Source: an uncultured Chthonomonadaceae bacterium (GTDB lineage Bacteria > Armatimonadota > Chthonomonadetes > Chthonomonadales > Chthonomonadaceae). Taken from it: 64,000 bases of DNA. The translations under genes were made by a program, and so were the position numbers. This document shows, in pieces, positions 8,810 to 43,975 of this stretch (positions are counted from its first letter, which is position 1; every line of letters starts with the position of its first letter). The notes below the pieces were generated by a model. The model was not told where the DNA came from, ran no database searches, and saw only the letters and a list, made by a program, of their open reading frames with translations. The stretch is from contig CAWIEK010000044.1 of NCBI GenBank assembly GCA_963835065.1, forward strand, positions 64,001 to 128,000, read 5' to 3'.

Positions 8810-8839
8810 CTTCCGATAGAACGCGGGGAACTTAAACCG

Positions 8840-10189: not shown

Positions 10190-10226
10190 CATGGATAATG
10201 AAGGGTTGTTGAGAAGGAGGATCGCT

Positions 10227-10739: not shown

Positions 10740-10745
10740 GAAGGC

Positions 10746-10861
10746 CATTAGGCATGTAGGCATTAGGCATTAGGCATCGGGCATTAGGAAAGAAGGTAGA
10801 AGGCAGAAGACAGAAGCCTGATCCCTGAACTCCTGACCCCTGACCCCTGACCCCTGACCCC
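10746..10861. repeat. Two heptamer tandem tracts (GGCATTA)n and (CCTGACC)n
   Basis: Directly visible intergenic tandem repeats. Confidence 0.8.
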
Positions 10862-10878
10862 TACTTTGAGGAGGCAAT

Positions 10879-22950: not shown

Positions 22951-22968
22951 AATCAACAGTCCCCAGGT

Positions 22969-24339: not shown

Positions 24340-26772
24340 TTAAGGCTGCGACGGAGGCGTGTTGGGAACAAAAGCATTGTCAGCATCAGAATGATTTACC
24401 CTGTGGTATGGATAGCCTATGTCGCGCAGATAATCTGCTTCCGAAGGCGTTCCTGTTGAAATTGTAGTTTTTTCTTCCAGTGTGTCGAAGACCGGGTCCG
24501 GCGCGCAGTCGCCAATGCCGTTCATCTGATGCGCGCCATGTGTCATTTCGTGAAACAAAATGGCATCATTAGGAACCGGATGTGCCGGATCAAGGGAGTT
24601 TGTAAGCGTTAGATCCGGCAGAAGCCTTACAGTGGTATCAGCCCCCGTTCCAGTACCAATGCGCTGTGTTACGCCATCAGCCTCCATAACGGGTGCCCCG
24701 GAGCCGTAGAATACAGGTTTACCTACAGCCGTAGACGCTTGCCATTCATCATCGGTATCCGGGCCGCAATCGCTGTTTGGTCCGTTTGGATCGTTAGCTG
24801 GATACTCGGTAATCTTCATGTTGTGTCCGCTCTCATCAATGCTGTTGAGGGTCTGCATACCGGAATCGGTAGTGGCAATTTTGTCAAGCCGATCCAATGC
24901 CTGCGCCTGGAAAGCGGGCGTACCGTGAATGGTAATAGCCCTGCCTACTTTGGTGTCCCCGTTGGGCAGCTTCGTAACGGCCATTCCTCCAACAGTACGC
25001 GTTGCCGCAGTGCCCGTTCCCGCGCCTCCTGCTGGCCCTGCTCCCACGCCTAAACTCGTGTCCAGGTGCAGGGGTGACATGGAGGTGGGTCCACAGTTGA
25101 TCATAACGAGCGGCGTTCCGTCTATCTTGACAGTTCCCTTTGTCGCCTTCATCTGGATCGTGCCCGCTTCCAGCATCAACTGGTTGTCGGCGTGCATGTA
25201 GATGCTGCCCGAACAGAAGATGTCAAGCTGCGCGGGGCCACTCCCCTTCTCGAAGTGAATACGATCACTCCCCGAACTTGTCAGGTCCATCACCACTGTC
25301 TCTTTGCCGCCCTCGATCTCGCCCCGAAAGATCAACTTGTCCTTACAGCGTATCTCTACAATGTCGGTGGCGCCTTTGTCTTTCGTCGTCATGCTCACCA
25401 GATTACCCGAAGGTGTCCGCCACAACTTGGTTTCATCCGGCGCATACACAAACCCCTGCGCCGCATGTTCACGCACCGACCCGATCACGACTGCATCGCT
25501 GTCCCAACCATCTAAGAACTGCACAAGCACATGCTCGCCCACTTCCGGCAGCGACAGAAAGCCCGACGTGCCGGTCTTGCCCTTCAACCCGCCATATGGT
25601 GTGACGGTTTGCAGCCAGCACAAGCGCGTAAACGGCGTCGCTTCCAGCGGCTCCCAATCGAACTCCACCTGAATACGCCCGCTCTTGGTCGGATCGTCGC
25701 TATTGTTCTTGGTCACATGCGCCCACAGGCACTGCATCGGCCAGTTGGTGCGCCGCAAGCGGGGAAGCAGGGGCATCAGTTTGTCTAAGAGCGCGAACTC
25801 CTGCGACACGGCTTCGCTGCCATGTCCTTGTATGGTCACGTCGCGCACCAGCCAGGGTTGTTCGGCAAAGTTGACCAACGCGCCAGGCGCAAAGGCGTAC
25901 ACGCCTCCCATCCAGCGCGCCCGGCACACAACCGTGTTCACATCCAGGTTGGTCGCATCCTCTAACTTCTGTTCCTGCTGGTACTGCGCATGATGGGGCG
26001 CGTCCGCTTTCGGTTCGTACAGGTGCCCCGGCGCGCGCGTCAAACCCGCGTTGAACTCCAGCACCTTAGAACGCGCAATACCCGGCGACGCGCTGCCGGT
26101 GCCCTGCGCGGTTGTTTGTATGGGAACCAGGCCCGCTTCCAGACTGGTCGTATTCCAGTGCCTATCCGCGCTCGGAAACTCGTCGCCTGCCGGAACGCTC
26201 GGTTTGCCGATCAGCACTTTGCGGTTGAGGTCGTCAACGGCTAGGGGAATGCCCCACGCATGCAGCATCCGGCACAAGTAAGCAAAATCGGTTTCTTCGT
26301 ACTGGACGCTGAGGGGTATCTTTACGCTTCCTGTTGCGCTCGCCCCGCCTTCGCCGAAGTCAAGTTCTCCCTTGTTCTTGCCGATGAGGTAATCGCACAC
26401 ATCTTTGAGCGTACAGCTTTCCCACACGCGGAAGTTGCGGATTTGATCCAGGCGCGCGCTGTAGGACACGCACTCGAAGTGGAAGTAGGCGCGGTGTTCC
26501 AGCCGTTCGGCGCGCACGGAGCGCACATAGCCCCGGAAGCAGTCCACCGTTTCGCTGTCATCCTTAGAATGCCAGCGCAGCAGCACATCGGCGTTGAGGG
26601 TTTTTGCGCCTTTTTCGGCAAGAGCGGCGTAGGTATCGGCTTCCTGATCGTCGGTTCCGAGCGTACAATGGGCCGTGCCGTGCGTGTACAGGCGGCGGAC
26701 GATGGACACATCGGCCAGTTCCGTTTTGGCGATCAGCCCGTTGATTACACCCGACACGATCTCGAACGACAT
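24340..26772 (-). CDS. vgrG: VgrG spike with C-terminal M91-like zinc metallopeptidase (evolved VgrG)
   Basis: VQYEETDFAYLCRM, DDPTKSGRIQVEFDW, LPEVGEHVLVQF; C-terminal LFHEMTHGAH (HExxH) and EEKTTI. Confidence 0.9.
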   Translation of the reverse strand: MSFEIVSGVINGLIAKTELADVSIVRRLYTHGTAHCTLGTDDQEADTYAALAEKGAKTLNADVLLRWHSKDDSETVDCFRGYVRSVRAERLEHRAYFHFECVSYSARLDQIRNFRVWESCTLKDVCDYLIGKNKGELDFGEGGASATGSVKIPLSVQYEETDFAYLCRMLHAWGIPLAVDDLNRKVLIGKPSVPAGDEFPSADRHWNTTSLEAGLVPIQTTAQGTGSASPGIARSKVLEFNAGLTRAPGHLYEPKADAPHHAQYQQEQKLEDATNLDVNTVVCRARWMGGVYAFAPGALVNFAEQPWLVRDVTIQGHGSEAVSQEFALLDKLMPLLPRLRRTNWPMQCLWAHVTKNNSDDPTKSGRIQVEFDWEPLEATPFTRLCWLQTVTPYGGLKGKTGTSGFLSLPEVGEHVLVQFLDGWDSDAVVIGSVREHAAQGFVYAPDETKLWRTPSGNLVSMTTKDKGATDIVEIRCKDKLIFRGEIEGGKETVVMDLTSSGSDRIHFEKGSGPAQLDIFCSGSIYMHADNQLMLEAGTIQMKATKGTVKIDGTPLVMINCGPTSMSPLHLDTSLGVGAGPAGGAGTGTAATRTVGGMAVTKLPNGDTKVGRAITIHGTPAFQAQALDRLDKIATTDSGMQTLNSIDESGHNMKITEYPANDPNGPNSDCGPDTDDEWQASTAVGKPVFYGSGAPVMEADGVTQRIGTGTGADTTVRLLPDLTLTNSLDPAHPVPNDAILFHEMTHGAHQMNGIGDCAPDPVFDTLEEKTTISTGTPSEADYLRDIGYPYHRVNHSDADNAFVPNTPPSQP

Positions 26773-27602: not shown

Positions 27603-30108
27603 TCAATTGAAGGAAATATGCAGATCGCCGACAACGCCCTCTTTGAAGTTCAGCTTGATGCTGTAACCGGCGGAAGGGTCGTCCACGTCATTGGGCGTGA
27701 CCACAACGCCGTCTTCTTTCAGCGGGCCGGGGAACGCATTGACGGTCTTGCCCAGCGGATCGTACCAGCCCTTGTTGCCGCCGTCCACATACAGCAGAAT
27801 TTCCGCGATAAGCGCTTCCATTTCCTCCTGCGTGGGCAGCGCGCCGCCTTCAAACGCTTGATACGCCAGCAGCAGGCGGCGCAGATACACCTCCTGCCGG
27901 TAGTGGTGAATCATGCGATAGCGATAGCCGGAGCCGATGTCCACGCGATACAGCGTGCGCGGCGCGACAATCGCAGGGTTTTTGCCGGCAACATGCCGAA
28001 ATACGAGAAACGACTGATCCACGCCCGAAAACTGCGAATAGATGTCGTCGCCGGTAAACTCGTCGAGCGGTACGCGGGTCTGCGCGAATATGGGATGGGC
28101 GGTAACATCTACGGCAATACCGGGCAGTCTCGGGTTCACCTGTTGCTGCATTTTGGAAATAGCCTGCAGCACTTTGGGCTGGTCATTCGCCATGATGCGT
28201 CCCGCCGCGACATAGCAGGCGCGCACGGCAACGGGCGGCACTTCCACCGCTACCTCGCGCCCGTCCGCCACCTTGCCCGTGATCAGTACGCCGTCCGGGG
28301 GCAGGCACAGGAAATCGGGCGCGCACAAAATGCCGGAAACCGCCCACGACTGCCCCACAACGTCGTCCACGCAGTAATCGTTTTGTACGCCTTCCACAAC
28401 GACTTTTTTCGCCCGCCCGGAAATCAGCCTTTCTTCGGGCGAGAACAGTACTTGAAAGCCGCACTCATAGCCCAGTTCCATCAGGCCCATCACTTCGGCT
28501 GCGCCCGCCACGCGCCCAAACCCGCCGAACTGCTCGATGCGCTCGTGGCGCAGTTTCTCGATGCGCGCGTCCAACTGGATATGGTCATCCTCGACCTCGG
28601 CCTCTGTGGTACGCTGGTAATCCTCTTCAAAGTTGCCGCCCCGGATGCGCCCCTCGCCGGGGGGAGTCGGTTCCTGGCCGAGGAAGGGAGCGACATGCGG
28701 CACAATCGCAAAGGAAATGGCGTCCTGGTACTGGTTGCCAGCCTGGTGGCATGCGCGGCGCATGTAGTAGACAAGCTCTTCCTGATAGATTTGCCACAGG
28801 TCGGTCAGTTCGCCGTTGGCGACGATAAGTTCCGGCTGTATGCCCATGACGTCCGGCGGAAACTCGTTGAAGAGAGAATAAACTCCCATAATCGTTTCAA
28901 ACAGAGGAATCACTTCGCGGAGGAAGCTTTGTACGCCCTTGCTGTACACGCCAAGAAAATCGTCATGCGCTTTCGCCAATTCCTGCGCGTCGAATTTGTA
29001 GGTGATTCCATCCGGGCCGGTCAGACCTTTGGCAAGTTCTTTGGGATCGTTGAGGACGACGGCAAGCAGGTTTCCTACAACCGGGTCAATCTTCTTCAGA
29101 CGCACCATCTCGCTCATGAAGCTGCCGACAACGGCGGGAAGCTGGGCTTTTCTGTCCTTGATGGTAGCGATTTCGCTCAGGTCGCGCTTTGCCAGGGGCT
29201 TGCTTTCCAGCGCGTTGCGCAGGGGAACCAGTTCCGTGCTTCCCGTGCGGGTGGCCGCGCCCGCGCCGATGGCCTTGCGCGTGGGCGGCGGCAATTTGGG
29301 AATGTCTTCGACGCTCAGGCGGCCATTGGTTCCGATGGTCAGGAACAAATTTTGATCGCTTGATTGACCGCTGCCCCCACTCGGCCCGACCATAGATTTG
29401 TAAGATTCCAGCAGCGCGTGTTCCGCGATGGCTGTGGTGCGCAGTTGATCGGACAGCGCGTTTTCCAGTTCGGACTTGCGCCGCTCAAAGGCTTCCAGCG
29501 AACGCTGGATGTCCTTGTTCATCTTCACTTCGCCGCTGGAATCTTCGGCCCGCTTCATTTCGATCAGCAGTTTTTCCAACTGGGCATGCAGCGTCTGCAT
29601 GGACTTTTTCACCAAGCCGTACTGTACGCTGGGCTTGAAGCCAAACAGCGCTTCGTCAATGTTGACCCGATCCGCGCCCTGACGCAAACGCACCCGATTG
29701 CTGATAAGGTCGCGCAGCGAACGGATGAAGGGATGGGAACTCGTTGATGAGTATCTTGGTCCAGCCCGGCCCGCCTTCCAGCGAGAACTCATAATGCGGA
29801 AGTTCATCAAGGGAGTAGACCTGGCCTTCCGCGTCTTCGGTCGTGATTTGCCCACCCGCCCGTAGGCGATAAAAAAAAGCGGGCTGCATCTTGTCCATGA
29901 ACTCTTTGAAAGAATGGACAGCCAGTTCTTTCTTGACTTTGTCTCGAAATTGCGTCCACGTCATCAAGCCGGACTGCAAATAGGCCAGCATATCTTCCAG
30001 GCGTGGCGCATCTATGGACAAGTTGACGGAGGTAAACAAAATGGCGCGGCTGGTGTTGGGCTGCATGGTCTGATTGACAAATTGCAGCGTTTTACGATTA
30101 ATGGGCAT
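27603..30108 (-). CDS. Contractile sheath (TssC/DUF5458-like) with long N-terminal extension; frameshift near 29738
   Basis: Removing one base joins KILINE to SHPFIRSL (about 835 aa). The C-terminal half has ELIVANGELTDL, ISFAIVP, GILCAPDFL and VPP...AAGRI, resembling DUF5458 sheath motifs. Confidence 0.6.
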
Positions 30109-30218
30109 GTCGAACTTTCTCCCGGAATGTGACTGTTTGTTTTACCTGCATTGTTCTAGTGACGTAGAATACACCACTCGTGTTCCGTCTATCGCCATAA
30201 AAAGTAGATATTGAATGA

Positions 30219-30235
30219 TCATCTTTGCAAGATGA
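30219..30235. promoter_or_regulatory. Inverted repeat TCATCTT-N3-AAGATGA in the AT-rich divergent promoter region; possible operator
   Basis: Perfect 7-bp arms between the T6SS-like and cas operons. Confidence 0.3.
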
Positions 30236-30601
30236 GCGTCAACTTCACAAATTGATAAATATGATCAGATGGATGAGGCGCAAAGCGGTTTTAGGCCAGC
30301 GAAATTGGAGGATCTGCTGAATTTAAGAGAGTGTTCTACCCTAACCAACCTGACAGGCGAAAAGTTCTGTTGCGGTTCCCAATCTGGCGCGATTTTAAGA
30401 AAATTTTATTCAAACCACAGAGGAAAAGCATATCCAGTCGGTCAATCTATATCCACGCCCTGTTACTTTCAACAGCCTGCCCGGGCGCAAACGATTTTCC
30501 CATACTCTGTTACATCTTCCAATGGTCAAGGCATGTTAGATAAATGCAACCAAATGGATTGTGTAAAAATATTCCTGAGCAACTATCCCGGAGGTCGTTC
30601 C

Positions 30602-31879
30602 ATGCCAAAGTATACACACATGGTTTGTTTGGTTGGCGAGAATCCTCTGCCTATCTGGTTGGGAATTCACCAGTTTATGCCATCGAAGCAAGAAACGGCC
30701 AACATAGAAGCAAAGCCGATTGTCCGTCTCGTCTACTCAAGTCAAACCAAGAAGGTCGCTGAACACCTGCAAAAACAGTTGCAGCATGAAAGCGATAGTG
30801 GTCTGCACGAGATTAGATGCTTATTCGATGCCGATGGCGAACTCAAAGAAGCCTTTTCACCACAGGCAATGAGGGAGACGTTGAAAAAGCTGAATGGCGA
30901 GAACCTTAGTGATCTTGACGATTATGCGTTGAACTACACCGGTGGCACAAAGGTTATGGCTGCCTACTTTCTCCACGACTGGATGACGACCGGACGCAGT
31001 GACCGCGCATTCTATCTACAAGAAACAAACGGGCAATTTCACTTTGATAGCGGCACCCCATATCCACTTAAGCCAACTATTAGAGAGTTGACACTTGACA
31101 CTCTCGAAAGACTTCACGGCGCTAATCCGCATTCGTTGCGCCCCAATGTGCCCTGTAACAAACAAGATTGTGTGAATTTTTATAATGCACATCAAAGCGG
31201 CGAGTTGGCAAAAATCAAGAAGAAGTCATCTGATAAGTGGAACCCACTAGAACCTTCAATTCCTTACTTTCATGCCCAAGTTGAAAGTGAAGGAACTTGG
31301 AGAGGGGAGAGTGAATGGGCGCAAATTTTTACACTACTCACCGACAATGCGCGTACGCAATGGCAGCAATCTATCTTCTATTCTGATGACACAAAGCAAA
31401 AGCTCAGTGAAGAACTCAAGGAGCAGTTCCGCTTTGCCTTTAAGAATGAGTGGCTGGAATGGCTTGTCATGTTCTGGCTGAAAGAAGTATTGCCTGACAG
31501 TAAAGTTACCACTGGCAAGAAGTTCAAAATTGAAGGCCAAGAGTTTGAAGCAGATGCGCTGGTGGTTCACAAGAATCGTCTTTATTACTTCTCTGTCACT
31601 ACCAAATTGAAGCCCGATGAGTGTAAAGAGAAAATGTTCGAGGCTATACACCGCTCGCGGCAGTTGGGTGGTGGATTAGCGCGTTCTTGTACCATTTGCC
31701 TGGCAGATGAATACGATGATTACGAGAGCGGCAAAAAGGTGGATACAGTTTCAGCAATTCGTAAATCTCTCACGAGCAGCGATAAAATCGGGAACCACAC
31801 CATCTTTGGACTTAAAGAGATCACTAAATGGCTAACTGATGAAAACATCGAAGATATGGAAACTTTCATCAATCAATAG
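30602..31879 (+). CDS. CARF-domain + PD-(D/E)xK nuclease (Card1/Can2-like cOA effector)
   Basis: LVGENPLP and LNYTGGTKVMA CARF motifs; EWLE...EFEADAL...FSVTT...KMFEA..R..QLGG nuclease domain. Confidence 0.85.
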   Translation: MPKYTHMVCLVGENPLPIWLGIHQFMPSKQETANIEAKPIVRLVYSSQTKKVAEHLQKQLQHESDSGLHEIRCLFDADGELKEAFSPQAMRETLKKLNGENLSDLDDYALNYTGGTKVMAAYFLHDWMTTGRSDRAFYLQETNGQFHFDSGTPYPLKPTIRELTLDTLERLHGANPHSLRPNVPCNKQDCVNFYNAHQSGELAKIKKKSSDKWNPLEPSIPYFHAQVESEGTWRGESEWAQIFTLLTDNARTQWQQSIFYSDDTKQKLSEELKEQFRFAFKNEWLEWLVMFWLKEVLPDSKVTTGKKFKIEGQEFEADALVVHKNRLYYFSVTTKLKPDECKEKMFEAIHRSRQLGGGLARSCTICLADEYDDYESGKKVDTVSAIRKSLTSSDKIGNHTIFGLKEITKWLTDENIEDMETFINQ

Positions 31880-31893
31880 AGAGGATTTCTGGT

Positions 31894-33378
31894 ATGGCAT
31901 TGGATAGTGACGGAGTAAATTCGGCCTATATCTCCTTCGATGTAGATCGTATCAAGGAGTTTGTATTCGCCGGACAGCGCCCTCTCGACATTACTGGAGC
32001 AAGTGAGCTAATAAAGCAACTGGACACGCAGGTAAATGGCGGTAGCCTGGAGACATGGCTACACGAATTTCAACCTTTTGAAGTTATCTACGCGGTTGGC
32101 GGTTCCGGCATGATTCGCCTCATTGATAGTACGCGAGCAGGCGATCTATGCTGCTATCTGGAGCAGAAGTTTCGACAGGAAACGCTTACCGGATCGTGCA
32201 GCGCGGTTTATGTTCCCATTCCCAAAACGCCGCCAACAGGAGCCGCCTTCCGGGACGCGCTCCGCTTGCTGGGTATTCGCCTTCAGCAACGCAAAGCGGA
32301 GAAGGCGGGTAAAGAGCCTGCGGAAGCGTGGACAATGGGAAACTTCTCGCGCTGTCAGGCATGTGGTATTTTCCCATCTTCTGTGGAGGATGTCAAACTT
32401 CCCACTAACGAGGAGAAACGATGGATTTGCGCGTCCTGTCTGAAAAAGCGAACCACAGGACGAAACCTGAGAAACTTGATTTCCGACCGGGGCAATCTGG
32501 CGCTCTCACTCAGTGATATTTCCAATTCTTACATTGCCTGTCTCTACGCGGATGTCAACAAAGCCGGCAAATTATTGCTTGCCTGTAATGAGGAGCGGGA
32601 AGTACGCCTCTTCTCCGATCATTTCTTTCGGATATTACAGCAGGAATTTCTTAAGCAAGTTCCGGGCAGATTTCAAAGCCCGGTCATTGGCGGCGATGAC
32701 TTGCTTCTCCTGATTCCTGCACAGAACTGTGTCCATGTCACCATGAGTCTGTGGCAACAGGTTGAAACGAGCCTGACTCACGTTCCTCAATACCTTGTGA
32801 ATACAGAGGTTGGAAAACTGCTGCAAAATGTTTCTCTAAGCCTCAGCCTAGTGATTGTCGAGCATCAACTCCCTATCAACTTCATCTTCGATATGGCGCA
32901 GTCACTTCTCAAGAGCGCGAAAACGGGCAGTTATCAACTTGGAATGTCTACCATTGACTACATGCTCCTGAAAGGGGGCAGTCCGATGAGCGGGAATATC
33001 AAGGCGCTTCGGGACCATTACTTCACTGCCTCTTTGCCACAGGGAACCACGTTCCCGCAGGCCGAAGACGCAGGAGAGATTGAGATAAGACAGCAATATC
33101 TCACGCGCCGTCCCTACACGCGCGCGCAACTGAACGAACTAGTTCAACTCCTGCGGGTTGTCAAGGACAGGAAGGCGGCCTTCCGCTCAATTCTTGACAA
33201 GTTTCAAATTGCAAGCCCCACGGAAGTCTACATCCACGCGCAGTATCAGAAATCGCGGGAGTATCTGCCAGGTAATGTTGACGAGATGCTCTATCGCATC
33301 GAAACACGCGAGGGTGATAACATATTGACGACCGGCGTGGGCGACCTCCTTGAACTCTACGAAATGAACTCGCTTTAG
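31894..33378 (+). CDS. cas10: Compact Cas10 (no HD domain) with intact GGDD palm
   Basis: FDVDRIKEFVF...DITGAS palm 1, CQAC...CASC Zn finger, YADVNKAG and IGGDDL palm 2; 494 aa. Confidence 0.9.
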   Translation: MALDSDGVNSAYISFDVDRIKEFVFAGQRPLDITGASELIKQLDTQVNGGSLETWLHEFQPFEVIYAVGGSGMIRLIDSTRAGDLCCYLEQKFRQETLTGSCSAVYVPIPKTPPTGAAFRDALRLLGIRLQQRKAEKAGKEPAEAWTMGNFSRCQACGIFPSSVEDVKLPTNEEKRWICASCLKKRTTGRNLRNLISDRGNLALSLSDISNSYIACLYADVNKAGKLLLACNEEREVRLFSDHFFRILQQEFLKQVPGRFQSPVIGGDDLLLLIPAQNCVHVTMSLWQQVETSLTHVPQYLVNTEVGKLLQNVSLSLSLVIVEHQLPINFIFDMAQSLLKSAKTGSYQLGMSTIDYMLLKGGSPMSGNIKALRDHYFTASLPQGTTFPQAEDAGEIEIRQQYLTRRPYTRAQLNELVQLLRVVKDRKAAFRSILDKFQIASPTEVYIHAQYQKSREYLPGNVDEMLYRIETREGDNILTTGVGDLLELYEMNSL

Positions 33379-33386
33379 GAGATGTG

Positions 33387-35189
33387 ATGAGCTATACATT
33401 GACACTCTTTGCAGAAACGCCTATCCTGATTGATGGGCAACATAGCTCCTTCATTGTAGACAAGTCCACGGCAAGGAAAATAGTTGCCAAAAAGGACAAT
33501 TCGGAGGAGAAGCGAAGCAAGCCGTTTATCCCCGCGTCTGCCCTTAAAGGCGCATTGCGCATCGAGTTCGAGCGTCTTCTGCGTGGCATTGGTATTTATA
33601 TTTGTCCCGCTCCTGACCCAGAAAAAATGTGCAAAGATAGAAATAAACTCTGCCTTGCCTGTCGCTTGTTTGGTGGACCGAATTCCCGCGTAGGGAAGCT
33701 GCGATTCCAAGATGCTCTGTTCCAGCCAAGTTTTGATGAAGATGCCTATGCCCGGCGAATGGGAGTCAGCATCTCGCGCCAACTTCGCAAAGTGGAAGGC
33801 CAGAAACTTTATAGCCAGGAAGCGGCTCCTGCGAACCTGAAATACCAGGGCGCTATCGCCGTCCTCGAACCTCTTTCAGATGAGGAGAGCGCCTACTTTG
33901 AAAAGGTTCTCGCCTGGTGCGAAATGGAAGGATTGTTCATCGGAGGAAATCGTTCGCGCGGAATGGGCAAAATCGCCCTGAATGTCAAGAAGTCCGATCC
34001 TGTAGTTCCCACAACTTTACATTTTGAGGAAAAGGGGAAAACCAAAGTCTATCAAGTCACCTTCGAGCGTGATGCAAATCAGCCGGAACCGATGCGTGTC
34101 AGCCGACACAAGACCGGAAGTTACCTGCTCAACAGTTTCGACTTTTTGCCGGGCAGTACCGCGCGTGGAGCCGCCGCATGGGGATGGACGCGCCAGGGAC
34201 TGCCGGAGGCCGATGTTTCGGAACTGATATTGCGGCGTACACGATTTTCCCATCTTTATCCGGTCCAACTAGATGAAATACGCCCTTCAACCGCGGTTGC
34301 ATGCAAACAGCAACCTGACAAAGATGGCCCATTTGACACGCTTTTACTGCGTTTCCTGCTAAACCAGGCGGAGAAGACGGCTAATGGTAAAGCGCTGATT
34401 TCCCTTTTTGAACGACTTGATGCCTGTCCTAATTGCAAAGGCGGATTAATTCCAGCAGATCGTTTTAAGACAAGCGCGGACCGGCAGTTAATGATAAAGT
34501 TGGGGCTGAACCGGCAAACGGGACACGCAAAAGAAACTTTCTTCTATATCTATGAAACCCTGAACTCGCAGACTACCTATTCCGGGTTCCTTCAGGCAGA
34601 TGAGAGCATTGAAGCTCTTCCTGAAACGGTGCCGGTCTTCATTGGCGGCGCGAGAGGCAAAGGTTTCGGCAAAGGAACACTCAAAATCCACCATGATGTT
34701 TCTCATGTGCCGGGTGATCTCGATGCGGTGAAAGAACGTCTTAAGCAGCTCAATCGCAAGTTGGAAGAATTGGCAGCAGAGAAAATGTATGCGCTTGCTC
34801 TTCCACAGAATCGAACCTACTTCTCTCTGATGTTGCTGACAGACTTGGTTCTTCCGCCGAACACGGCGCTACAAGACTTGCTGGAACGCGAAGGCTGGCA
34901 GTGGGAGTTGGCTCAACTCGGCTGGACGCGCATGGGAGGCTTCAATGAGGCGGCTGTGCAGCGCAAGCCCCTCATCCCTGTATTGGAGCGCGGTGGCACT
35001 GTCCTGCTTTCTGTTGACCATGACGAGAACACAAGGGATCAGCTCGCCATACGGCTTGCAGAACTTGAGACCACAGGGCTTGGCTTGATGCGGATGCAGG
35101 GTTTTGGCTGGATTTATTCGAATCACGACTTTCACGATTTTGGCGTTATACCCAATAAGGAGCAGAGCGATGGAACAAGAGCGTCTTGA
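33387..35189 (+). CDS. csx10: Cas7-Cas5 RAMP fusion (Csx10-like)
   Basis: PFIPASALKGALR, C..CRLFG, IGGNRSRGMG; then LPGSTARGA, IGGARGKGFG and GLGLMRMQGFG G-loops. Confidence 0.85.
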   Translation: MSYTLTLFAETPILIDGQHSSFIVDKSTARKIVAKKDNSEEKRSKPFIPASALKGALRIEFERLLRGIGIYICPAPDPEKMCKDRNKLCLACRLFGGPNSRVGKLRFQDALFQPSFDEDAYARRMGVSISRQLRKVEGQKLYSQEAAPANLKYQGAIAVLEPLSDEESAYFEKVLAWCEMEGLFIGGNRSRGMGKIALNVKKSDPVVPTTLHFEEKGKTKVYQVTFERDANQPEPMRVSRHKTGSYLLNSFDFLPGSTARGAAAWGWTRQGLPEADVSELILRRTRFSHLYPVQLDEIRPSTAVACKQQPDKDGPFDTLLLRFLLNQAEKTANGKALISLFERLDACPNCKGGLIPADRFKTSADRQLMIKLGLNRQTGHAKETFFYIYETLNSQTTYSGFLQADESIEALPETVPVFIGGARGKGFGKGTLKIHHDVSHVPGDLDAVKERLKQLNRKLEELAAEKMYALALPQNRTYFSLMLLTDLVLPPNTALQDLLEREGWQWELAQLGWTRMGGFNEAAVQRKPLIPVLERGGTVLLSVDHDENTRDQLAIRLAELETTGLGLMRMQGFGWIYSNHDFHDFGVIPNKEQSDGTRAS

Positions 35190-35559
35190 CGAACTGAATC
35201 GCCAAAACGAGGCGATGCGCAGGCGGTTTCAGAAACAGCAGGCATTGGATGATGAGAAAGATATGCTGGCGAAACTAGCAGTAAGTCTGGTGGACAAACT
35301 ACGTGCGAACCAGGAAGTCAGATTTCCCAAAAAGTCTCAGCTTCAAAACTTTCGCACTGCCGCTGCCGGTTACGTTTCTGTCCAGGAGATCAAAATCTAC
35401 ATCACCTATCAGATGAGTTGAAGTCAAAGCCCGCTCAATCGGACTTTTGGCAAAACCATCATTGACAATCTCGACAAATTTGACAACGATATTGAAAAGT
35501 CCCGGCTCTTCTTAGGCTACTTCTGCCGGTACGGTGCGCAATTTGCCGAGAAAGGATAA
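35170..35559 (+). pseudogene. Cas11/Csm2-like small subunit with an in-frame TGA at 35419-35421
   Basis: KSQLQN...IYITYQMS*SQSPLNRTFGKTIIDNLDK...RLFLGYFCR; the reading frame continues to TAA at 35557-35559. Confidence 0.75.
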
Positions 35560-35563
35560 CAGG

Positions 35564-36358
35564 ATGAGCAAGAAACCCAATGATGTTTTGGCAAGCAGAG
35601 TTCGTCTGACAGGTTTTGTTCAGAACGAAACGGCGCTGCACATCGGTATAGGACGCTCGCTCGGCGTCACCGGAAGCGACTCGCCGGTTTTGCTGGATTA
35701 CTTCAATAACCCTGTAATTCCCGGTTCTTCCTTCAAAGGAACCCTGCGCGCGAATTTGGAAGCCGTCGTGCGCGGCTTGAATTTCGGCAAGTTGCTGTGG
35801 ACTTGTGACACCGTTGCGCATACCAATGAACACAAAACCTGTTGCGTTCGTGACAAGGAAGATTGGGACAAAGCCGATGTGATATTAAACAACTTGTGCG
35901 ACATGTGTTACCTGTTCGGCGCTCCCTATTTCGGCGCGAGACTATTTATTTCGGACATGGTTGTCGCGCCTGACTGTTGGCTGCCACAGATGCTTGGAGT
36001 GCGGGACGGGGTTGCCATTGATCGGGAAACTCGTACAGCTTCCGGGGGCAAGAAATATGATTTTGAGACCGTTCCCCCCGGTGTTCGCTTCAAACTTGAC
36101 TTGGTGCTGGACAATCCACAGGATCACGAGGTAGGTCTGCTCCTGCGTGGCTTCGAACTTTATAACGAGGGCTTTGCGTTCCTTGGAGGCAAGACTTCGC
36201 GCGGCACGGGGCGGATATCCATTAGAATCGAAACCATCACACGTCTTGATCCTGTTGCTTTCCTCAAAGGTGAACAGACATATCGCACTGTTTTTGGGGA
36301 TGGAGAGTGGAACCACTACTACGAGGCTCTGAAAACCCGGCTGACGCCACAGGAGTAG
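35564..36358 (+). CDS. cas7: Cas7 (Csm3/Csx7-like) RAMP
   Basis: TALHIG, GSDSPV (Asp at the Csm3 catalytic position), IPGSSFKG, RDGVAIDR, LGGKTSRGTG. Confidence 0.92.
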   Translation: MSKKPNDVLASRVRLTGFVQNETALHIGIGRSLGVTGSDSPVLLDYFNNPVIPGSSFKGTLRANLEAVVRGLNFGKLLWTCDTVAHTNEHKTCCVRDKEDWDKADVILNNLCDMCYLFGAPYFGARLFISDMVVAPDCWLPQMLGVRDGVAIDRETRTASGGKKYDFETVPPGVRFKLDLVLDNPQDHEVGLLLRGFELYNEGFAFLGGKTSRGTGRISIRIETITRLDPVAFLKGEQTYRTVFGDGEWNHYYEALKTRLTPQE

Positions 36359-36371
36359 AAAGGAATTGCGC

Positions 36372-37197
36372 ATGTTCAGCAGTCTTAGAAATACGGCGAA
36401 ACTACAAATAAAACTGTCGCCGGAAGGTTCTTTTCTCATCAAGGCGCGGGAGAGTCTTAACCCCATGCGCCCGGATATGGAGTTTGTACGACTAAATACC
36501 GCATACGGAGAGACCCTCTACATTCCCGGTTCTTCGCTAAAAGGCGTCACACGTTCCAATGTCGAAGCATTGGTAACAGCCATGAATAATGTAGTCTGCA
36601 ACTCCTCCGACAAAACCTGCGGCAGATGCGATGGTTGCGCAACTTTTGGTAGTACGAGTATGGCAAGTCATGTTCGCTTTGGCGATCTGCTTCCTTGGCG
36701 TATTTCGCAAAAGCCAGAGGAGCGGGAACAGGCTGTAGTGGCACTCCAACCATTTCTCAACACACGTACTAATGTCGCTATTAACCGTAGGAAGGGCAGT
36801 GTAGGAGGCGGAGGCCCATTTGAAATGGAAGTGCTGTCGGGTGGAAGTTTTTTCGGAGAGGTTGTACTGGAAAACTACGACTTGTGGCAAATGGAGTTGA
36901 TACTGACGATCTTCGACCGCATTGATGATGGCACAATTCGCATGGGCTACGGCACATCCCGAGGCTTAGGGCGCGTAAAGCTGGAGGTGGAGACGATTTC
37001 AGATAGAGCAGTTCGGCGAACTGGCGCGTGACGCCCGCCTTTGCGGCAGCAGCATGAATGAACAGATAGAACTTTCTTCCTCTGTCACTTCTTCAGCCAG
37101 TCCGCTTGGCAGAAAATGGCAACTCACACGTGAAGATGTGTACGATGATGTATTCACCTGCCTTGTCAATCGTTATCAAGGAAGGGGCGCACATTGA
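36372..37197 (+). CDS. cas7: Cas7 RAMP; frameshift near 36998
   Basis: YIPGSSLKG, C..CATFG, RTNVAINR, MGYGTSRGLG; removing one T extends the ORF to TGA at 37195-37197. Confidence 0.85.
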
Positions 37198-37611
37198 ACG
37201 CGGAAATACAGCGGTTCGCGGACTTCAGATGCCTTTTTATCCACGCTTCGCGCGTTCAAAGATACTCTTCATGTTACCATAGAAACGCACCGTCAAAGCG
37301 ACGTACTGCATAATGTCGCCGTAAAAGAGGCTGTGGAACGATATGAACTGGAACTGGCTTCTCTGCCTTACGACCTCACCTTTCGCGCCTACGATGCCAA
37401 TTGCGAAGCCGCATGGTATGGCACGGAAGGCGTACTGATTCGCCTGAACGAAACCGGCAGCTATGCCGTGAGCAAACCGATTAGTTACAAAGAGAGTGGC
37501 GCGCAATCGAAAGTGTGTGTCAGAGAGATTATCTGTGAGGGGCGCGTCATTTATCGAAAACTCGAGCCTATACCTATACAGGAGGCGAAAACAGATGCGA
37601 ATCGTGACTGA
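37194..37611 (+). CDS. Small accessory protein in the csx19 position; frameshift near 37224
   Basis: TTG overlaps the upstream stop; removing one T gives an ORF of about 139 aa between Cas7 genes. Confidence 0.5.
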
Positions 37612-38512
37612 CGATCAAGAACAGGATGGCTTTTTTTGGGTTGAGCGTCTTTTGCCCAAGCATCATGGTTTGCCAAATCATGATCTTATCAAGGGCTTTT
37701 CGGGACAATGGAACCTCATTGGAGTTGCACAGACGCCACTGCATGTCGGCTCTGGTGAACTGAGCCTGATGGAAGGCCAGATGGTGTTTTCATTCAATCG
37801 TCAGGTTAATGGAGACAGCGAGATATGCATAATTTCCGGCTCCTCATGGAAGGGCGCGTTCCGAAGCATGGTGGAATTATTCAGTCCTTCCTGTTTTACG
37901 GGAGACTCTTGCCCGAGCCAGTGTCCGGCTTGCTCGCTATTCGGAACCATGGGCTACAGGGGGCGGATCGCTGTTGAAGACAGCCCTATTGCAAACGATG
38001 TGCAAACGGAAATAGCCACATTTCGGCAGCGCACCGAACCCAGGCGAAATGCGCCGCGTGGTGAAGACGCAATTTTTCATAAACTCTATAACCGCGATAT
38101 GACTCCACAGCAGTTGGTGCATCCCGAAGATTGGGAACGTGTAGAAGTTATCCCTGCCCAAACAAGGTTTTTGGTGCGAATACAGTTTCAAAACCTTCAA
38201 TCCTGGGAAATGGGATTGCTCCTCTTTTCACTTGGACTGACAAAATCGTATACTTTCGACTTCAAAGCAGGCGGCGCAAAGAATCGAGGTATGGGTGTGC
38301 TTCGGCTTCATTGGCACAAAGGCTATGCAGCATCTGGAATAAACTGGCTGCTTGATGGAAGTAAAGGTTCTCCCTCCCTTTCCCTCGCGGATCGTGCCTC
38401 CTATGTGTCCGACTACTTTGGGAAAGCAGAGGAGTGGGGTTGCCTGGCTGACGTGCAGAATTTGGCGGAAATTCTCAAGAGGGAGTACCGAAAAGATGCC
38501 GCAAATGCTTGA
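37595..38512 (+). CDS. cas7: Cas7/Csm5-like RAMP
   Basis: QTPLHVGSG, ISGSSWKGAFRS, CPACSLFG, AGGAKNRGMG; GGAGG RBS. Confidence 0.88.
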   Translation: MRIVTDDQEQDGFFWVERLLPKHHGLPNHDLIKGFSGQWNLIGVAQTPLHVGSGELSLMEGQMVFSFNRQVNGDSEICIISGSSWKGAFRSMVELFSPSCFTGDSCPSQCPACSLFGTMGYRGRIAVEDSPIANDVQTEIATFRQRTEPRRNAPRGEDAIFHKLYNRDMTPQQLVHPEDWERVEVIPAQTRFLVRIQFQNLQSWEMGLLLFSLGLTKSYTFDFKAGGAKNRGMGVLRLHWHKGYAASGINWLLDGSKGSPSLSLADRASYVSDYFGKAEEWGCLADVQNLAEILKREYRKDAANA

Positions 38513-39393
38513 AACTCAGGACAGAGAGCATCTCATTCAGCAAGTGCGTCTGTTGCTGCGAAACCTCCGTGAGCAGACCCCTTCAGACACTCTCCCGCAG
38601 ACGATGCGGATGGTTGCGCCGGTTCTCGCTCATCTCAAGCGACGCTCTCTGGCAGCAACCCTGATTCTCCTGGAATATCCGCATGCCAGCGACACTTCGC
38701 AACCGCACTGGGTTGAAATGCGGAGCCAGGTCAAACCATTCCTATCTGAAATTGTGGCAACTTACCCCGACGAGAGGCGGCAACAGGAAGCAGGACTTTA
38801 TGCACTTGGATGGCTGCATCGGCTCAGCCGCATCGTAGGAACAGAGCAGGACAACCAACGTTCTGATAGACCACAAGGGAACAGCCGTGCCAAGATTCCA
38901 GCGAGACAACTTACGCGAGCGTTCCCACAGGCGAGAAACATCAGAACGCTCACGACGCGAAAAGTCCTTGACCAGACCGCAACTCCCTCCTGACGAGCCT
39001 CTACAGCACAACGCGATGGCAGAAGCATTCAGCCGCTTGCAGCAAGAGGAGCAATCCGTCTCAGAGGAAGTTACCGTTCCTATTGTAGTGCCTTCAGAGG
39101 CAATGGTCGGCGACACTGACGAGGATAAGGAGGCAATGGCACGGCCAAGTTTCGGGAAACACCAACTATGGGTGACGGCGCTTCCCGGAGCCAAGCCTCG
39201 CATTGTAACCGAATGGGGAGAGCGCGTCACCTGTTACGGCATACAAGATTACAATATTCCTGAAACTGCCAAATACCCGCAGGAAGATGGCAGCGTGGAC
39301 TTGATGTGCCTCGCGGAAGTAACTTACAAAGACGGTCATGCGGTTTCTGCGCGTTTCGTCAAATGGATCGAGCAGGCTGATTTTGAGGATTAA
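38496..39393 (+). CDS. Second Cas11-like helical domain + Arg/Glu-rich linker + C-terminal beta domain; frameshift near 38896
   Basis: LYALGWLHRL small-subunit-like motif; removing one T joins AKI to QRDNLR. Confidence 0.5.
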
Positions 39394-39473
39394 TCCGATA
39401 ATCTGTCACAGGGTTCGCCTGCTCAACTCATTCCATATTTATCAGTGACCGCCAGACAACATGCTCCATACGT

Positions 39474-41861
39474 TTAGATAGCGGCGATTTGGTTGACTTC
39501 GGTTTGGATTTTGACGAGCTTGGCGTATTCGCCGTCTTTCTCCATCAGTTCTTCGTGGGTTCCACATTCCACCATTTTGCCTTCTTTCATCACGACGAGA
39601 CGGCTGGCGTTGCGCAGGGTGGACAGGCGGTGCGCGATGGCAAAGGTGGTTCGGTTTTCGATCAGGCGGGTAATCGCCTCCTGAATGAGTTTTTCGGTTT
39701 CGGTGTCCACACTGGCCGTCGCTTCGTCCAAAATGAGGATTTTCGGGTTGTGCAGGATGGCGCGGGCGATGGAAATGCGCTGGCGCTCGCCGCCCGAAAG
39801 CCGCTGCCCCCGTTCGCCGACATAGGTGTCATAACCGTCCGGGAACTTCAAAATGAACTCGTGGCAGTTGGCGGCTTTGGACGCCCGGAACACTTCGTCT
39901 ATCGTCGCGTCGGGCTTGGCATACGCGATGTTGTCGCGCAGGGTTCCGGGGAACAGGAACGGCTCCTGCAGCACAATGCCCAATTGACTGCGGAAATCTT
40001 CGCCCGCGATGTTGCGAATGTCCACGCCGTCTACCAGGATGCGGCCTTCCGACACTTCGTAAAAGCGCGAGAGGAGGTTGATAATGGTGGATTTGCCCGC
40101 GCCGCTGTGCCCGACAAGCCCGATCATTTCGCCGGGCTGTACGTGGAGGTTGAAGTCGTCGAGGACGCGATTGGCTTTGTCGTAGGTGAAGGCGACGTGC
40201 CGGAATTCCACTTCGCCTTTGATGTCGGGCAGGCGGGTGGCGTTTTCGGCTTCCCGAATATCCGGTTCCGTATCCAGCACTTCAAACACGCGCTCCGCAG
40301 CGGTCAGCGAACGGGTAGACCAGTCCAGCACTTGCGAGAAGTTCTGAAACGGCTGATAGAACTGGATGAGATAGCCGTTGAACATCGTGAGCAGGCCGAG
40401 CGTCATCAAATGGCCGTGAACAGTAACACCATTGAGAACTTGATTCCCGCCGACGATCCAGATGATGTAGCTGCCGGTACTCATCAGCAGGGCGAGCAGC
40501 GGAACGTATGTGGCGCGAAAGGCATTGGCCTCATAACTGGCCTGAAAAACGTTGGTGTTGCGGGTTCGGAAGTTGTTGACTTCGCGGCCTTCCTGCGCAA
40601 AGGCTTTCACGACGCGCATACCGGTTAAGGTGCTGTTGAGCGTGGAGTACATTTTGCTGATGCGCCGCCACACGACATGGTACTTGCGGCGGGCGCGGGG
40701 CATGAACCAGCGCGTCAGGCCGAAGATGAACGGGCCGGGCGTGAGCATCAGCAGCGCCAATTGCCAGTTGAGCCGAAACAGGACGAAGCCGATGCCTATC
40801 AGGGTCAGCACGTTGCTGATGAGCCAGGGGATGCCGTCGGCGAGGAAGTCCCAGAGGTTTTCGGCATCGTTGGTGACGCGCGCCATGACGCTGCCCGTAC
40901 TGCGCTTGTCGTAGTAGGCAAGCGATAACTGCTGAAACTTGTCGTACAGCGCCATGCGAATGTCCATCGTAATGCGCCCGCCAAGCCAGGGGTTGAGGCG
41001 GCGCTGGCCGTAAACAAAACAGGCGTTGGCGACGCGGGCAAGCGCAAACAGGCCGACAAAGCCGAGCAGGGGCCGCAGCGTCGTGTCATGAGCGCGGGTT
41101 TGGGCATTAAGTGTGTCTATGATGCGGCCCGCGACCCAGGGCGGCAGCAGGTCCACAAGGGTAATACCGACAATCAGGCTGATGGCAAGCACGACCTGCT
41201 TTTTGTAGGGCGTGAGGAACTGGAACAGGCGCAGAAGGACAGCCCGCTTGTTGGTGCAGGCGGGGCAAATGTCGCTGTCCTGGGGCAGGATGCGCTTGCA
41301 GTTCGGGCAATTCTTGCGCTTCTCCTCGGCTTTTTCCTGCTTGGGTGGCTCGCCTTTGGCAAGGGCGTTCAATTGCCGGGCGACAATGCTGGCTTCCCCG
41401 ATGTTGGCCTGTGAAAACCGCATCAGGGGAATGGTTTCCGCGTCCGTTCGCACTTGAATCAGGCCGTTGCCGACAAGCGTATCGGTTTTGGCTTCCTGAA
41501 TTTGCTTGAGCGGAATCGCATGGCGCACTTTGGCATGATTGCCGCCGTTGCGCGCGAACACATACACCTGCGCGTCGTCTACAACCAGCCATTCCGGGTG
41601 AAACACGCCTTCGGGCGTAATATCGGTTTCAAAAACAAGCGGTTTTTCCGCCGTCGGTATGGGCGCATTCTCCAGGTTGTCATCATCGTCGTTGGTGACT
41701 GGTGGTTGATGGTTGGTGAGTGGTGACTCGTGGCTGGCAGGGGCGTTCTCTGTAACTGCGCTGAACGCATTGGACGCAGGAGGATTGGTGACAGCGGCGT
41801 TGGCGCGCAGTTCGCGCAGCGTGTTTTCGACTTCTTCCGGCAGCGTTTCCAGCAGAGCCAT
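39474..41861 (-). CDS. ABC transporter ATP-binding/permease protein with N-terminal extension and CxxC...CxxC
   Basis: GHSGAGKST, LSGGERQR, ILILDEATAS; TM domain. Confidence 0.95.
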   Translation of the reverse strand: MALLETLPEEVENTLRELRANAAVTNPPASNAFSAVTENAPASHESPLTNHQPPVTNDDDDNLENAPIPTAEKPLVFETDITPEGVFHPEWLVVDDAQVYVFARNGGNHAKVRHAIPLKQIQEAKTDTLVGNGLIQVRTDAETIPLMRFSQANIGEASIVARQLNALAKGEPPKQEKAEEKRKNCPNCKRILPQDSDICPACTNKRAVLLRLFQFLTPYKKQVVLAISLIVGITLVDLLPPWVAGRIIDTLNAQTRAHDTTLRPLLGFVGLFALARVANACFVYGQRRLNPWLGGRITMDIRMALYDKFQQLSLAYYDKRSTGSVMARVTNDAENLWDFLADGIPWLISNVLTLIGIGFVLFRLNWQLALLMLTPGPFIFGLTRWFMPRARRKYHVVWRRISKMYSTLNSTLTGMRVVKAFAQEGREVNNFRTRNTNVFQASYEANAFRATYVPLLALLMSTGSYIIWIVGGNQVLNGVTVHGHLMTLGLLTMFNGYLIQFYQPFQNFSQVLDWSTRSLTAAERVFEVLDTEPDIREAENATRLPDIKGEVEFRHVAFTYDKANRVLDDFNLHVQPGEMIGLVGHSGAGKSTIINLLSRFYEVSEGRILVDGVDIRNIAGEDFRSQLGIVLQEPFLFPGTLRDNIAYAKPDATIDEVFRASKAANCHEFILKFPDGYDTYVGERGQRLSGGERQRISIARAILHNPKILILDEATASVDTETEKLIQEAITRLIENRTTFAIAHRLSTLRNASRLVVMKEGKMVECGTHEELMEKDGEYAKLVKIQTEVNQIAAI

Positions 41862-42172
41862 AATGATTGATTGCCTTTGTATGCGTTCGAATAGAGTTGG
41901 ATGGGTTCTGTGAGGAGCGTGGAGCGTTCGGCGGAACGCGGGCAGACATACACGAGCCTGAACGATTATGCTGACAAAAGTATACCTTTAATGAACTACG
42001 AACAACGCCCTGGTAAAGTTTACCTTATGAGGGCATTGTCCGTGTTCCTGTCAAGCGCTTTTAACGTGACGATCAAAGAGGGGCGCGTGTTCCGTTGTTG
42101 GAGTGTTGGAAGGTGACAAACGCGAGAGGACTAAATGTTTGTGGGGAAGGCATACGCGGAATGTTTGCAGGG

Positions 42173-42721: not shown

Positions 42722-42915
42722 ACCGTGCCATTCCCTTCGCCGCTGTTCTTAAACTGCCTCCCGTTATTATTGGCAAATCCCGGCTGATTTTTCACCATCG
42801 GCCTTAGCAGGAACAGGGCCGCGGAATGGCGAATATGAACGCAATCGGACACGTCCACTGCAACAAATTTCCCTTCATGAAGTTTTGTTTATCCATGCTT
42901 GTAGAAAGAGGCCAC

Positions 42916-43975
42916 ATGACGCAACAGCCAACACCGATAACGGATGCAGACGCAACCATAGATCATGACCGTTTGTTCAAGACGCTGCTGACCACGTTCT
43001 TTGTAGATTTCGTCGCGCTGTTCCTGCCCGAAGTGAGCGCGAGAATGGAGCCGGACAGTCTGGAGTTTCTGAGCCAGGAGATTTTCACCGACATCCATTC
43101 GGGTGAAAAGCACATTGTGGATGTTCTGGTCAAGGTGAGGCTGCAAGGCGAGGAAACGTGTCTGCTGATCCATGTAGAGAACCAGGCGTCTTCACAAGCG
43201 GAGTTCGCGCGGCGCATGTTCACGTTATTTTGCCCGTCTGCACGAGAAGTACGGCTTGCCCATCTACCCCGTCGCCGTGTTCTCTTTCGATGCGCCTAAA
43301 CGCGCTGAACCGAACAAGTACGTCATGAACGTTCCCGGCTTGCGCGTACTGGACTTCCGCTTCCGCGCCATTCAACTCAACCGGCTGCCGTGGCGGCGCT
43401 TTATGAAGCAGGCCAATCCGGTTGCCGTGGCCTTGATGACCAAAATGAAGATTGCGCCGAGCGACCAGAAGCGGGTAAAACTGCAATGCCTGCGCCTGCT
43501 GCTCACGCTCAAACTTGATCCGGCCAAGTCGGATTTGATTTTCCTGTTTATGGAAACGTATTTGAGACTGAATACAACCGATGAGCAATGGTATCAGCGC
43601 GCAGTAGATACGCTGAGTACAACCGAAAAGGAGCAAACGATGGAACTGATGAGCAGTGTGGGCCGCGAAGCCTGGCGCAAAGGCCTGGAGGAAGGACGCC
43701 AGGCCGGGCTGCAAACGGGCCTTCAGGAAGGACGACAAGTTGGCATTCAGGAAGGACGACAAGTTGGCATTCAGGAAGGACGACAGGAAGGACTTCAAGC
43801 GGGAGTAACGACTGTGGTATCACGTATACTGCAGCGCAAATTCGGTTCTGTGCCTCCTGCGCTGCTGCAGCGGGTTCAAACATTGTCCGTCGCAAACGCC
43901 GAAGCGTTGGCCGAAGAACTGCTTGGCAACATCACGCTTGCCGATGTGGAAGCATGGCTTGACCGCTTGCCGTGA
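42916..43975 (+). CDS. Rpn family (PD-(D/E)xK) / DUF4351 protein; frameshift near 43225
   Basis: DHDRLFKTLL, LIHVENQ, F.RRMF; EGRQ repeats; removing one T gives MFTYFARLHEKYGLPIYP. Confidence 0.88.

Follow-up and report, generated by a model that had tools for sequence, protein, structure and literature searches.

How does a type III-D CRISPR effector operon obtain its guide RNAs when neither an array nor a cas6 gene stands beside it? This question is raised by nine co-oriented genes that span positions 30602-39393 (+ strand) of a 64,000-nucleotide stretch of DNA from an uncultured Chthonomonadaceae bacterium, hereafter the window. The window corresponds to G000:C44:64001-128000, in which G000 is the source genome (8.0 Mb, 71 contigs, 91.9% complete) and C-numbers are its contigs; loci fetched for comparison carry L-numbers, and G001 and G002 are congeners. 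An earlier note had described the operon as an array-less, HD-less module wired to a single CARF nuclease, with a signalling-only output and with guides drawn from a distant array or replaced by another guide or trigger. In our analysis, it is very probably a standard III-D effector operon that carries a Can2 nuclease, lies far from arrays and is likely loaded in trans with guides that cas6 genes and arrays elsewhere in its own genome would supply. As a further distant III-D operon with the usual effector, it has little wider weight.

Composition and subtype of the operon

The genes follow the order CARF nuclease, Cas10, Cas7-Csx10 fusion, Cas11, Cas7, Cas7, csx19-position gene, terminal Cas7 and Csx21-family gene, and a clear ribosome-binding site (RBS) lies ahead of the start in eight of the nine (the last gene was probed at a position three bases off). 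Their features are listed below (aa, amino acids; ORF, open reading frame).

30602..31879, + strand: Can2/Card1-family CARF and PD-(D/E)xK nuclease, 425 aa, clade-1-type (SxTT) active site, intact (PADLOC CARF4_PDDEXK, E 1.2e-36; PDB 8q3y, E 9.6e-12)
31894..33378, + strand: Cas10, 494 aa, no HD domain, zinc-finger Cys pairs, YADVN and GGDD (32689-32700), intact (Pfam PF22335; PADLOC Cas10, E 1e-34)
33387..35189, + strand: Cas7-Cas5 (Csx10) fusion, about 600 aa, catalytic-position Asp D25 in the Cas7 part, intact (TIGR02674 Csx10, E 1.6e-25, residues 234-585; TIGR02581, residues 41-199)
35170..35559, + strand: Cas11 (Csm2-type small subunit) with an in-frame TGA at 35419-35421 (PADLOC Csm2 III-D, E 5e-7; family alignment)
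35564..36358, + strand: Cas7 (Csx7/Csm3-like), catalytic-position Asp D39, intact (TIGR02581, 164.6 bits, cut-off 108; best PDB match 8bmw_G, III-D Cas7)
36372..37197, + strand: second Cas7, catalytic-position Asp D35, frame change near 36996, ORF as read ending at 37031 (44-47% identity to the L037 and L038 orthologues up to 36998)
37194..37611, + strand: csx19-position gene, frame change near 37215 (28% to the L037 orthologue from 37222, E 2e-10; family alignment)
37595..38512, + strand: terminal Cas7, 305 aa, lacking both the large insertion and an Asp in the catalytic column, intact (TIGR03986 and TIGR02581, E 2e-14)
38496..39393, + strand: Csx21-family gene with a predicted N-terminal Cas11-fold domain (about 38496-38880), a linker and, in another frame (ORF 38887-39393), a small tail rich in beta strands (family profile; predicted fold)

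The gene list given earlier, namely a CARF nuclease, a 494-aa GGDD Cas10 without an HD domain, Csx10, Cas11 and three separate cas7 genes, was borne out by PADLOC and TIGR models. With an HD-less GGDD Cas10, Csx10, several Cas7 and Cas11 all found, the operon is type III-D as judged from its sequence. The GGDD motif of Cas10 occupies residues 266-269; eight homologues (30-40% identity, 499-569 aa) share the HD-less start and an invariant GGDD, and the best PDB match is the Cas10 of a III-Dv complex (8s9t_C). The absence of the N-terminal HD domain is real but is no peculiarity of this locus: an HD domain is reported for 3% of III-D Cas10 proteins, which leaves 97% HD-less (PMC11229360), and its loss was set aside as the III-D norm according to that source.

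The Csx10 match to TIGR02674 scores 90 bits, under the cut-off of 177, and that to PADLOC Cas5_IIId has an E-value of 3e-28. Since the Csx10 gene is a Cas7-Cas5 fusion and is accompanied by three separate cas7 genes, the operon holds four Cas7 domains in total; the earlier count of three applies to the separate genes. In an alignment, the catalytic-column Asp is kept in three of these domains and not in the terminal Cas7. In the III-Dv complex, RNA is reported to be cut at three Cas7 aspartates (PMC11026444). Because three Cas7 domains of the operon keep this Asp, an output restricted to signalling was too strong a claim. The gene previously called Csx19-like is conserved at the csx19 position in relatives and takes its name from that position only, with one of ten family members matching the PADLOC Csx19 model (E 0.019) and no match to the gene in NCBIfam, Pfam or PDB.

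Among described systems, the operon resembles III-D1 and III-Dv (Synechocystis PCC 6803 III-Dv, PDB 8s9t; Saccharolobus solfataricus III-D, PDB 8bmw), which provide the best PDB matches of its Cas10 and Cas7. The domain order (Cas10, Cas7, Cas5 (Csx10), Cas11, Cas7, Cas7, Csx19 position, Cas7) is that described for III-Dv (PMC11026444), and the three catalytic-position Cas7 aspartates are a further likeness. Unlike III-Dv, however, the operon fuses only Cas7 and Cas5, whereas Cas11 and both middle Cas7 have genes of their own, as in III-D1; in the window and in relatives, the Cas11 and middle Cas7 genes each have their own RBS. Neither the fusions that mark III-Dv (Cas7-Cas5-Cas11 and Cas7-2x) nor its Cas7 with an insertion were found, the last Cas7 being only 305 aa long. 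The operon also departs from both III-D1 and III-Dv in this insertion-free last Cas7, in the extra Csx21 gene at its end, in its lack of an adjoining cas6, adaptation genes and array, and in several frames that are broken as assembled. Subtype III-D2 is described as defined by a Cas7x3 fusion together with CorA (PMC13294483); the operon has no triple fusion, and no CorA match was found in the window.

The CARF nuclease is placed by motif in clade 1 of Can2, a clade described as being encoded in III-D loci and carrying E-ExD-SxTTS-K (PMC10783487); more broadly, Can1-2 effectors are reported in 143 of 1113 type III loci (PMC11229360). Its CARF motif, NYTGGTK at residues 111-117, fits NxTGGTK, and the nuclease motif is present save for the last Ser, which is Lys. 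Both motifs (NxTGGTK and E-ExD-SxTT-K) are shared with TbrCan2, the clade 1 Can2 of Thermoanaerobacter brockii (PDB 8q3y; PMC10783487), and nine catalytic or substrate-binding residues are conserved between the two proteins: E286, E316, D318, S331, T333, T334, K344, E347 and R351 align with TbrCan2 E304, E341, D343, S356, T358, T359, K369, E372 and R376. An acidic residue is likewise kept at the base-selecting position (D339 for TbrCan2 E364), and TbrCan2 is also encoded in a III-D locus. An upstream ATG at 30269 was considered as the Can2 start and ruled out by the RBS and the L038 orthologue, both of which favour 30602. Predicted synthesis of cyclic oligoadenylate by the GGDD Cas10 for a Can2/Card1-type effector, as proposed earlier, belongs to the best-supported reading, and the relevant residues are present.

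The operon ends with a gene whose N-terminal 127 residues align with small same-position proteins of 10 relatives; PADLOC Csx21 is matched by six of the 11 family members, the window copy itself giving no match. When the Csx21 and Cas11 family profiles were compared (hhalign), a score of 93.9% was obtained (E 1.6e-7). A model of the N-terminal domain (pLDDT, the predicted confidence of the model, 87.8) was searched against 48,161 chains, and the top five matches were Cmr5 or Cmr-complex chains (Z 9.0-10.3, root-mean-square deviation 3.0-3.8, 98-112 residues aligned); the next unrelated fold follows at Z 7.7, and such Z values are modest for a helical bundle. These comparisons support the identification of the gene as Csx21 with a predicted Cas11 fold, in agreement with the second Cas11-like gene recognised earlier. 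The tail domain gave no usable model (pLDDT 43), no Pfam match and no usable Atlas match. Csx21 is listed as III-D associated or of unknown function in one paper (PMC6546367), and its prediction as a second Cas11-fold protein is a small useful point, although the assignment may already be in print.

Probable guide supply outside the window

At the locus and throughout the window, the array-less description stands: a repeat finder detected no array in the 64 kb, and a search of the window for the genome's own repeat core at up to 5 mismatches gave one match, at the 5-mismatch limit and 15 kb off. None of the 108 other window ORFs matched cas6, cas1/2, CARF or ring-nuclease models, which confirms that cas6, cas1/2 and ring nucleases are missing from the window, and Rfam gave no matches over 28000-42000. 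A faint cas6-like tblastn match at 29885-30052 (E 0.052) was dismissed as chance. As for a hidden guide RNA, a promoter scan found three weak sites against 1.1 expected.

For the genome, the same description fails, as four repeat families are present. Four cas6 genes were found, on C2, C49 and C63 (Pfam Cas6) and, in a type I-B locus, on C15; the C63 and C15 genes are open frames. Repeat R1 (37 nt) occurs in 26, 4, 2 and 1 copies on C49, C2, C44 and C37, R2 and R3 (37 nt) in 16 and 18-19 copies, both on C63, and R4 (30 nt) in 30 copies on C42 and another 5 on C69; all four families end in ATTGAAAC. Genes for cas1 lie at three loci (C44, C49 and C15), and the array nearest to the operon is an R1 mini-array with cas1 on the same contig, 440 kb away. 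Spacers of R1 are 35-45 nt long and adjoin reverse transcriptase (RT), cas1, cas2, csx15 and CARF-transmembrane genes, that is, a type III support set, arranged as cas6, csx15, CARF-transmembrane, cas2, RT, cas1 and array on C49 and as cas6, csx15, CARF-transmembrane and array on C2. The CARF nuclease is single locally but not in the genome, where other contigs carry two CARF-transmembrane effectors and one Csx1, along with three Csx15 ring-nuclease genes; Csx15 is described as a ring nuclease or sponge for cyclic tetra-adenylate (cA4) (PMC13148439). With cas6, arrays, cas1 and Csx15 at other loci, guides, their processing, adaptation and an off-switch therefore all exist outside the window. 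A guide-less standing of the operon is contradicted by the cas6 genes and ordinary arrays elsewhere and by its standard III-D parts, the very findings that the earlier note had named as refuting its reading; supply in trans of CRISPR RNAs (crRNAs) from distant arrays is best supported, and another guide or trigger is without support.

Such an arrangement has precedents. Cas6 is reported to be used in trans by most type III systems (PMC12669027), and 88% of cas clusters are reported to lie in CRISPR-Cas loci, with about 12% distant or orphan (PMC7145637). Like the "distant" clusters served in trans that were described by Bernheim et al. (PMC7145637), the operon is separated by over 20 kb from every array of an array-bearing genome; unlike them, it is one of two type III effector operons of the genome that are both array-less as assembled, with support genes spread over four other places. 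The second, of type III-B and accompanied by csx1 and csx15, occupies the end of contig C48 (L005 10514-18553), in which several frames are broken, as is also the case in the type I-B operon on C15 (L006 2751-12253).

The C49 cassette (L003, about 678900-685900), with 26 repeats, holds type III support genes without effector genes directly after a ribosomal protein operon; its RT and cas1 are separate, and in the assembly its cas6, csx15 and cas1 all have broken frames. On C44, with an intact cas1 (L002 9675-11100, G000:C44 about 541700-543100), and on C2 there are satellite R1 mini-arrays whose leaders are nearly identical, and a single repeat lies on C37.

Related operons were collected through an alignment search, which gave six genome and 24 metagenome loci (a single-protein locus search gave none). 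Among the 30 loci fetched, 14 held most of the operon and entered the tally; five of these, which end within 200 bp of it, were dropped, leaving nine, of which two (L048 and L050) are close kin. This Cas10 was found in one of 67 other genomes of the class and not among 40 sampled relatives. The closest complete operon found, L038 from another uncultured Chthonomonadaceae, matches the operon in all nine genes and in their order (30-48% identity) but, in contrast to it, carries cas6 and arrays right after the operon and another array upstream, with all reading frames open. The last 20 bases of its repeat are identical to R1 at 19 positions, to R2 and R3 at 14 and to R4 at 13, and its Cas6 shares 30-32% identity with the copies on C2, C49 and C63.

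An array adjoins the operon in seven of the nine relatives with readable flanks and is missing in two. Because two of nine relatives share it, the array-less layout recurs within an ordinary CRISPR family. For example, in one of the two (L041; G071:C54) the operon is intact and the cas6 match of the genome lies on contig C3, while neither the 9.9 kb upstream of the operon nor the 3.9 kb downstream contains an array, a cas6 or a CARF effector; a repeat flagged upstream did not look like a CRISPR array on inspection by eye. The upstream effector varies between relatives (Can2, CARF-HD or Csx1). A CARF7-HD protein of about 700 aa, the effector of most relatives in place of Can2, lies upstream of cas10 in L037, L039, L044 and L048. 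In L059, a SIR2-domain protein with pAgo-associated model matches (8480-11005) is located between the III-D operon and cas6.

If these parts act together, Cas6 would cut repeats with a CCCC-loop-GGGG hairpin, most likely R1, leaving the 8-nt tag ATTGAAAC, and the crRNA-loaded complex would bind complementary invader RNA and cut it at three Cas7 sites. Cas10 would then make cA4, which would turn on Can2 for cleavage of RNA and single-stranded DNA and would probably activate the two CARF-transmembrane effectors encoded on other contigs as well, until Csx15 removes or sequesters it. The operon was probably gained horizontally without the cas6 and array still held by its closest relative, or lost them later.

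Broken reading frames and competing readings

Although Can2, Cas10, Csx10 and two cas7 genes are intact, breaks overlooked earlier are present in cas11, the second cas7, the csx19-position gene and probably the last gene. At the TGA of cas11, relatives have Arg (9/10) or Lys (1/10), and the 45 codons after the stop align with the C-terminal half of the family at a score that none of 300 shuffles reached for each of three relatives. The frame change in the second cas7 removes about 55 C-terminal residues; the next frame resumes with a QFG motif (score reached in 3 of 300 shuffles against L038 and in 12-43 of 300 against three others), and the stop of this continuation overlaps the start of the next gene. 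In the csx19-position gene, the frame change parts a TTG start and its RBS from the body, in which no in-frame start precedes 37333. In the last gene, two overlapping ORFs meet near 38887, whereas the L038 orthologue is a single 237-aa ORF; a frame change there is probable on this comparison, although the tail gave no alignment to that orthologue (72 of 300 shuffles).

The island itself is real DNA because contigs from an independent sequencing run match it at 99% or better: six short contigs (151-185 nt) map to the island and its upstream gap with one differing letter and no gaps, covering none of the four lesions. A sequencing-run search listed one DNA run containing the locus (share 0.07) and no RNA run. 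GC at third codon positions is 0.49-0.57 in this low-GC island and 0.72-0.75 in two flanking genes.

As a background control, conserved genes were compared with 800 kb of the congener G001, and 20 frameshifts were counted in 17 of 173 genes (215.5 kb), among them alaS, clpX, lon, a ClpB/C-type ATPase and tgt; 16 of the 20 belong to the +1 (mod 3) class, as do the three window frameshifts, and three of the 173 genes had any in-frame stop. A reciprocal test, before filtering of shadow ORFs, gave 23 frameshifts in 251 G000 genes against three in 270 G001 genes, with two of those three at places where G000 itself had shifted. Frameshifts in conserved genes indicate, therefore, that the assembly contains indel errors like those reported for long-read assemblies (PMC12007338, PMC11017572); a long-read platform is presumed here. 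On C63 (L004, 58900-63400), moreover, R2 and R3 spacers are depleted of homopolymer dinucleotides (0.157 vs 0.256, p 2e-9) while the repeats are clean, which suggests poor consensus in strain-variable DNA. On balance, assembly error is the somewhat likelier source of the broken frames, and there is a nearly even chance that at least one lesion is real, which would disable the complex.

Both cas6 paralogues linked to R1 (L001 11535-12400 and L003 8900-9754) have the same short tandem repeat of heptamers within their coding sequence, and the reading frame is offset by the same net amount around it, yet their downstream differences fall mostly at third codon positions. Heptamer runs of at least three units number 40 in the G000 genome. 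The offset may be a shared error, a shared insertion or recoding.

Several observations weigh against a working operon loaded in trans. The four lesions in its 8.5 kb compare with 0.87 expected (P about 0.012; for frameshifts alone, P 0.046), and both cas6 genes beside R1 arrays are frameshifted as assembled, the intact one adjoining R2 and R3. The III-B operon on C48, itself array-less, could be the sole user of the arrays. Spacers of the C49 array found no target among 50,697 phage records, and the antisense bias of R1 spacers (19/28, p 0.087) is not significant, nor is that of any repeat family. The Can2 protein differs from TbrCan2 at S360 (Lys), K301 (Glu) and the D383/E384 sensor (Gly/Leu), and its base preference and activation may differ accordingly. 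The only rival of real weight shares the identification of the operon and contends solely on whether the system still works: the lesions would be real, the complex would no longer assemble, and all CRISPR systems of the strain would be in the course of being lost. We regard this decay as a serious possibility, short of an even chance. Its case is built on the excess of lesions, which a rough by-eye count extends to the cas genes of the whole genome (about 17 lesions over about 34 kb vs 3.5 expected), on in-frame stops in cas11, cas1 (C49) and csx1 (C48), which are rare in the control, on the congeners (G001 is without a PF10040 cas6 match, and the sole match of G002 has an internal stop) and on the reported need for Csx19 in III-Dv complex assembly (PMC11026444). 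It is countered by the frameshift background with its dominant +1 class, by the reciprocal test and the C63 spacers, by paralogue differences that fall mostly at third codon positions (52/79 in cas1 and 80/143 in cas6) and by the intact state of Cas10, Can2, Csx10 and two cas7; moreover, the control consists of conserved core genes, and errors in accessory DNA may be more frequent than it suggests. Decay caused by self-targeting found no support, as none of 90 spacers matched the genome outside arrays, save two 21-nt partial matches and one duplicated spacer. As this case illustrates, window-level array-less calls, and broken genes of this assembly, need genome-wide and error-rate controls before a biological reading.

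It is improbable that guides are borrowed mainly from the type I-B system, with its 30-nt R4 arrays and intact C15 Cas6: R4 shares the ATTGAAAC end, the I-B cas6 is an open frame and cross-type sharing is documented, as reported for a III-B system using type I-F in Marinomonas (PMC7145637), but the L038 repeat fits R1 far better than R4 and the L038 Cas6 belongs to the C2/C49/C63 family rather than that of I-B. Far less credible still is an array-free module in which another guide RNA or a non-RNA trigger drives cA4 for Can2. The bare window and the two array-less relatives count in its favour, but the genome does hold cas6 and compatible arrays, which also speaks against an array-independent type III class such as a III-G-like one, seven of nine relatives are array-linked, the Cas5 and Cas7 parts are conventional, and the surroundings offer neither an Rfam match nor an extra candidate sensor gene. 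Supply in trans from the arrays of the genome, R1 most likely, is preferred to both. An extension of this preferred reading, in which the live operon has two Cas11-fold subunits (Cas11 and Csx21, the latter with an extra C-terminal domain) and is joined with the second array-less type III operon in one genome-wide signalling network by guides from four repeat families sharing the 8-nt tag and by cA4 effectors and Csx15 on three other contigs, appears unlikely.

Neighbouring genes

Upstream of the operon (1041-30108), the window contains contractile-injection or type VI-like genes, including Rhs repeats and baseplate J, and several further ORFs without family matches. This region also encodes a PAAR-EndoU nuclease (21757-22956) and a VgrG-like protein with an M91 peptidase tail (24340-26772). 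Downstream, an Rpn/YhgA-like transposase-family gene (42826-43975) is split near 43230 by a +1 frame change when compared with its G001 orthologue.

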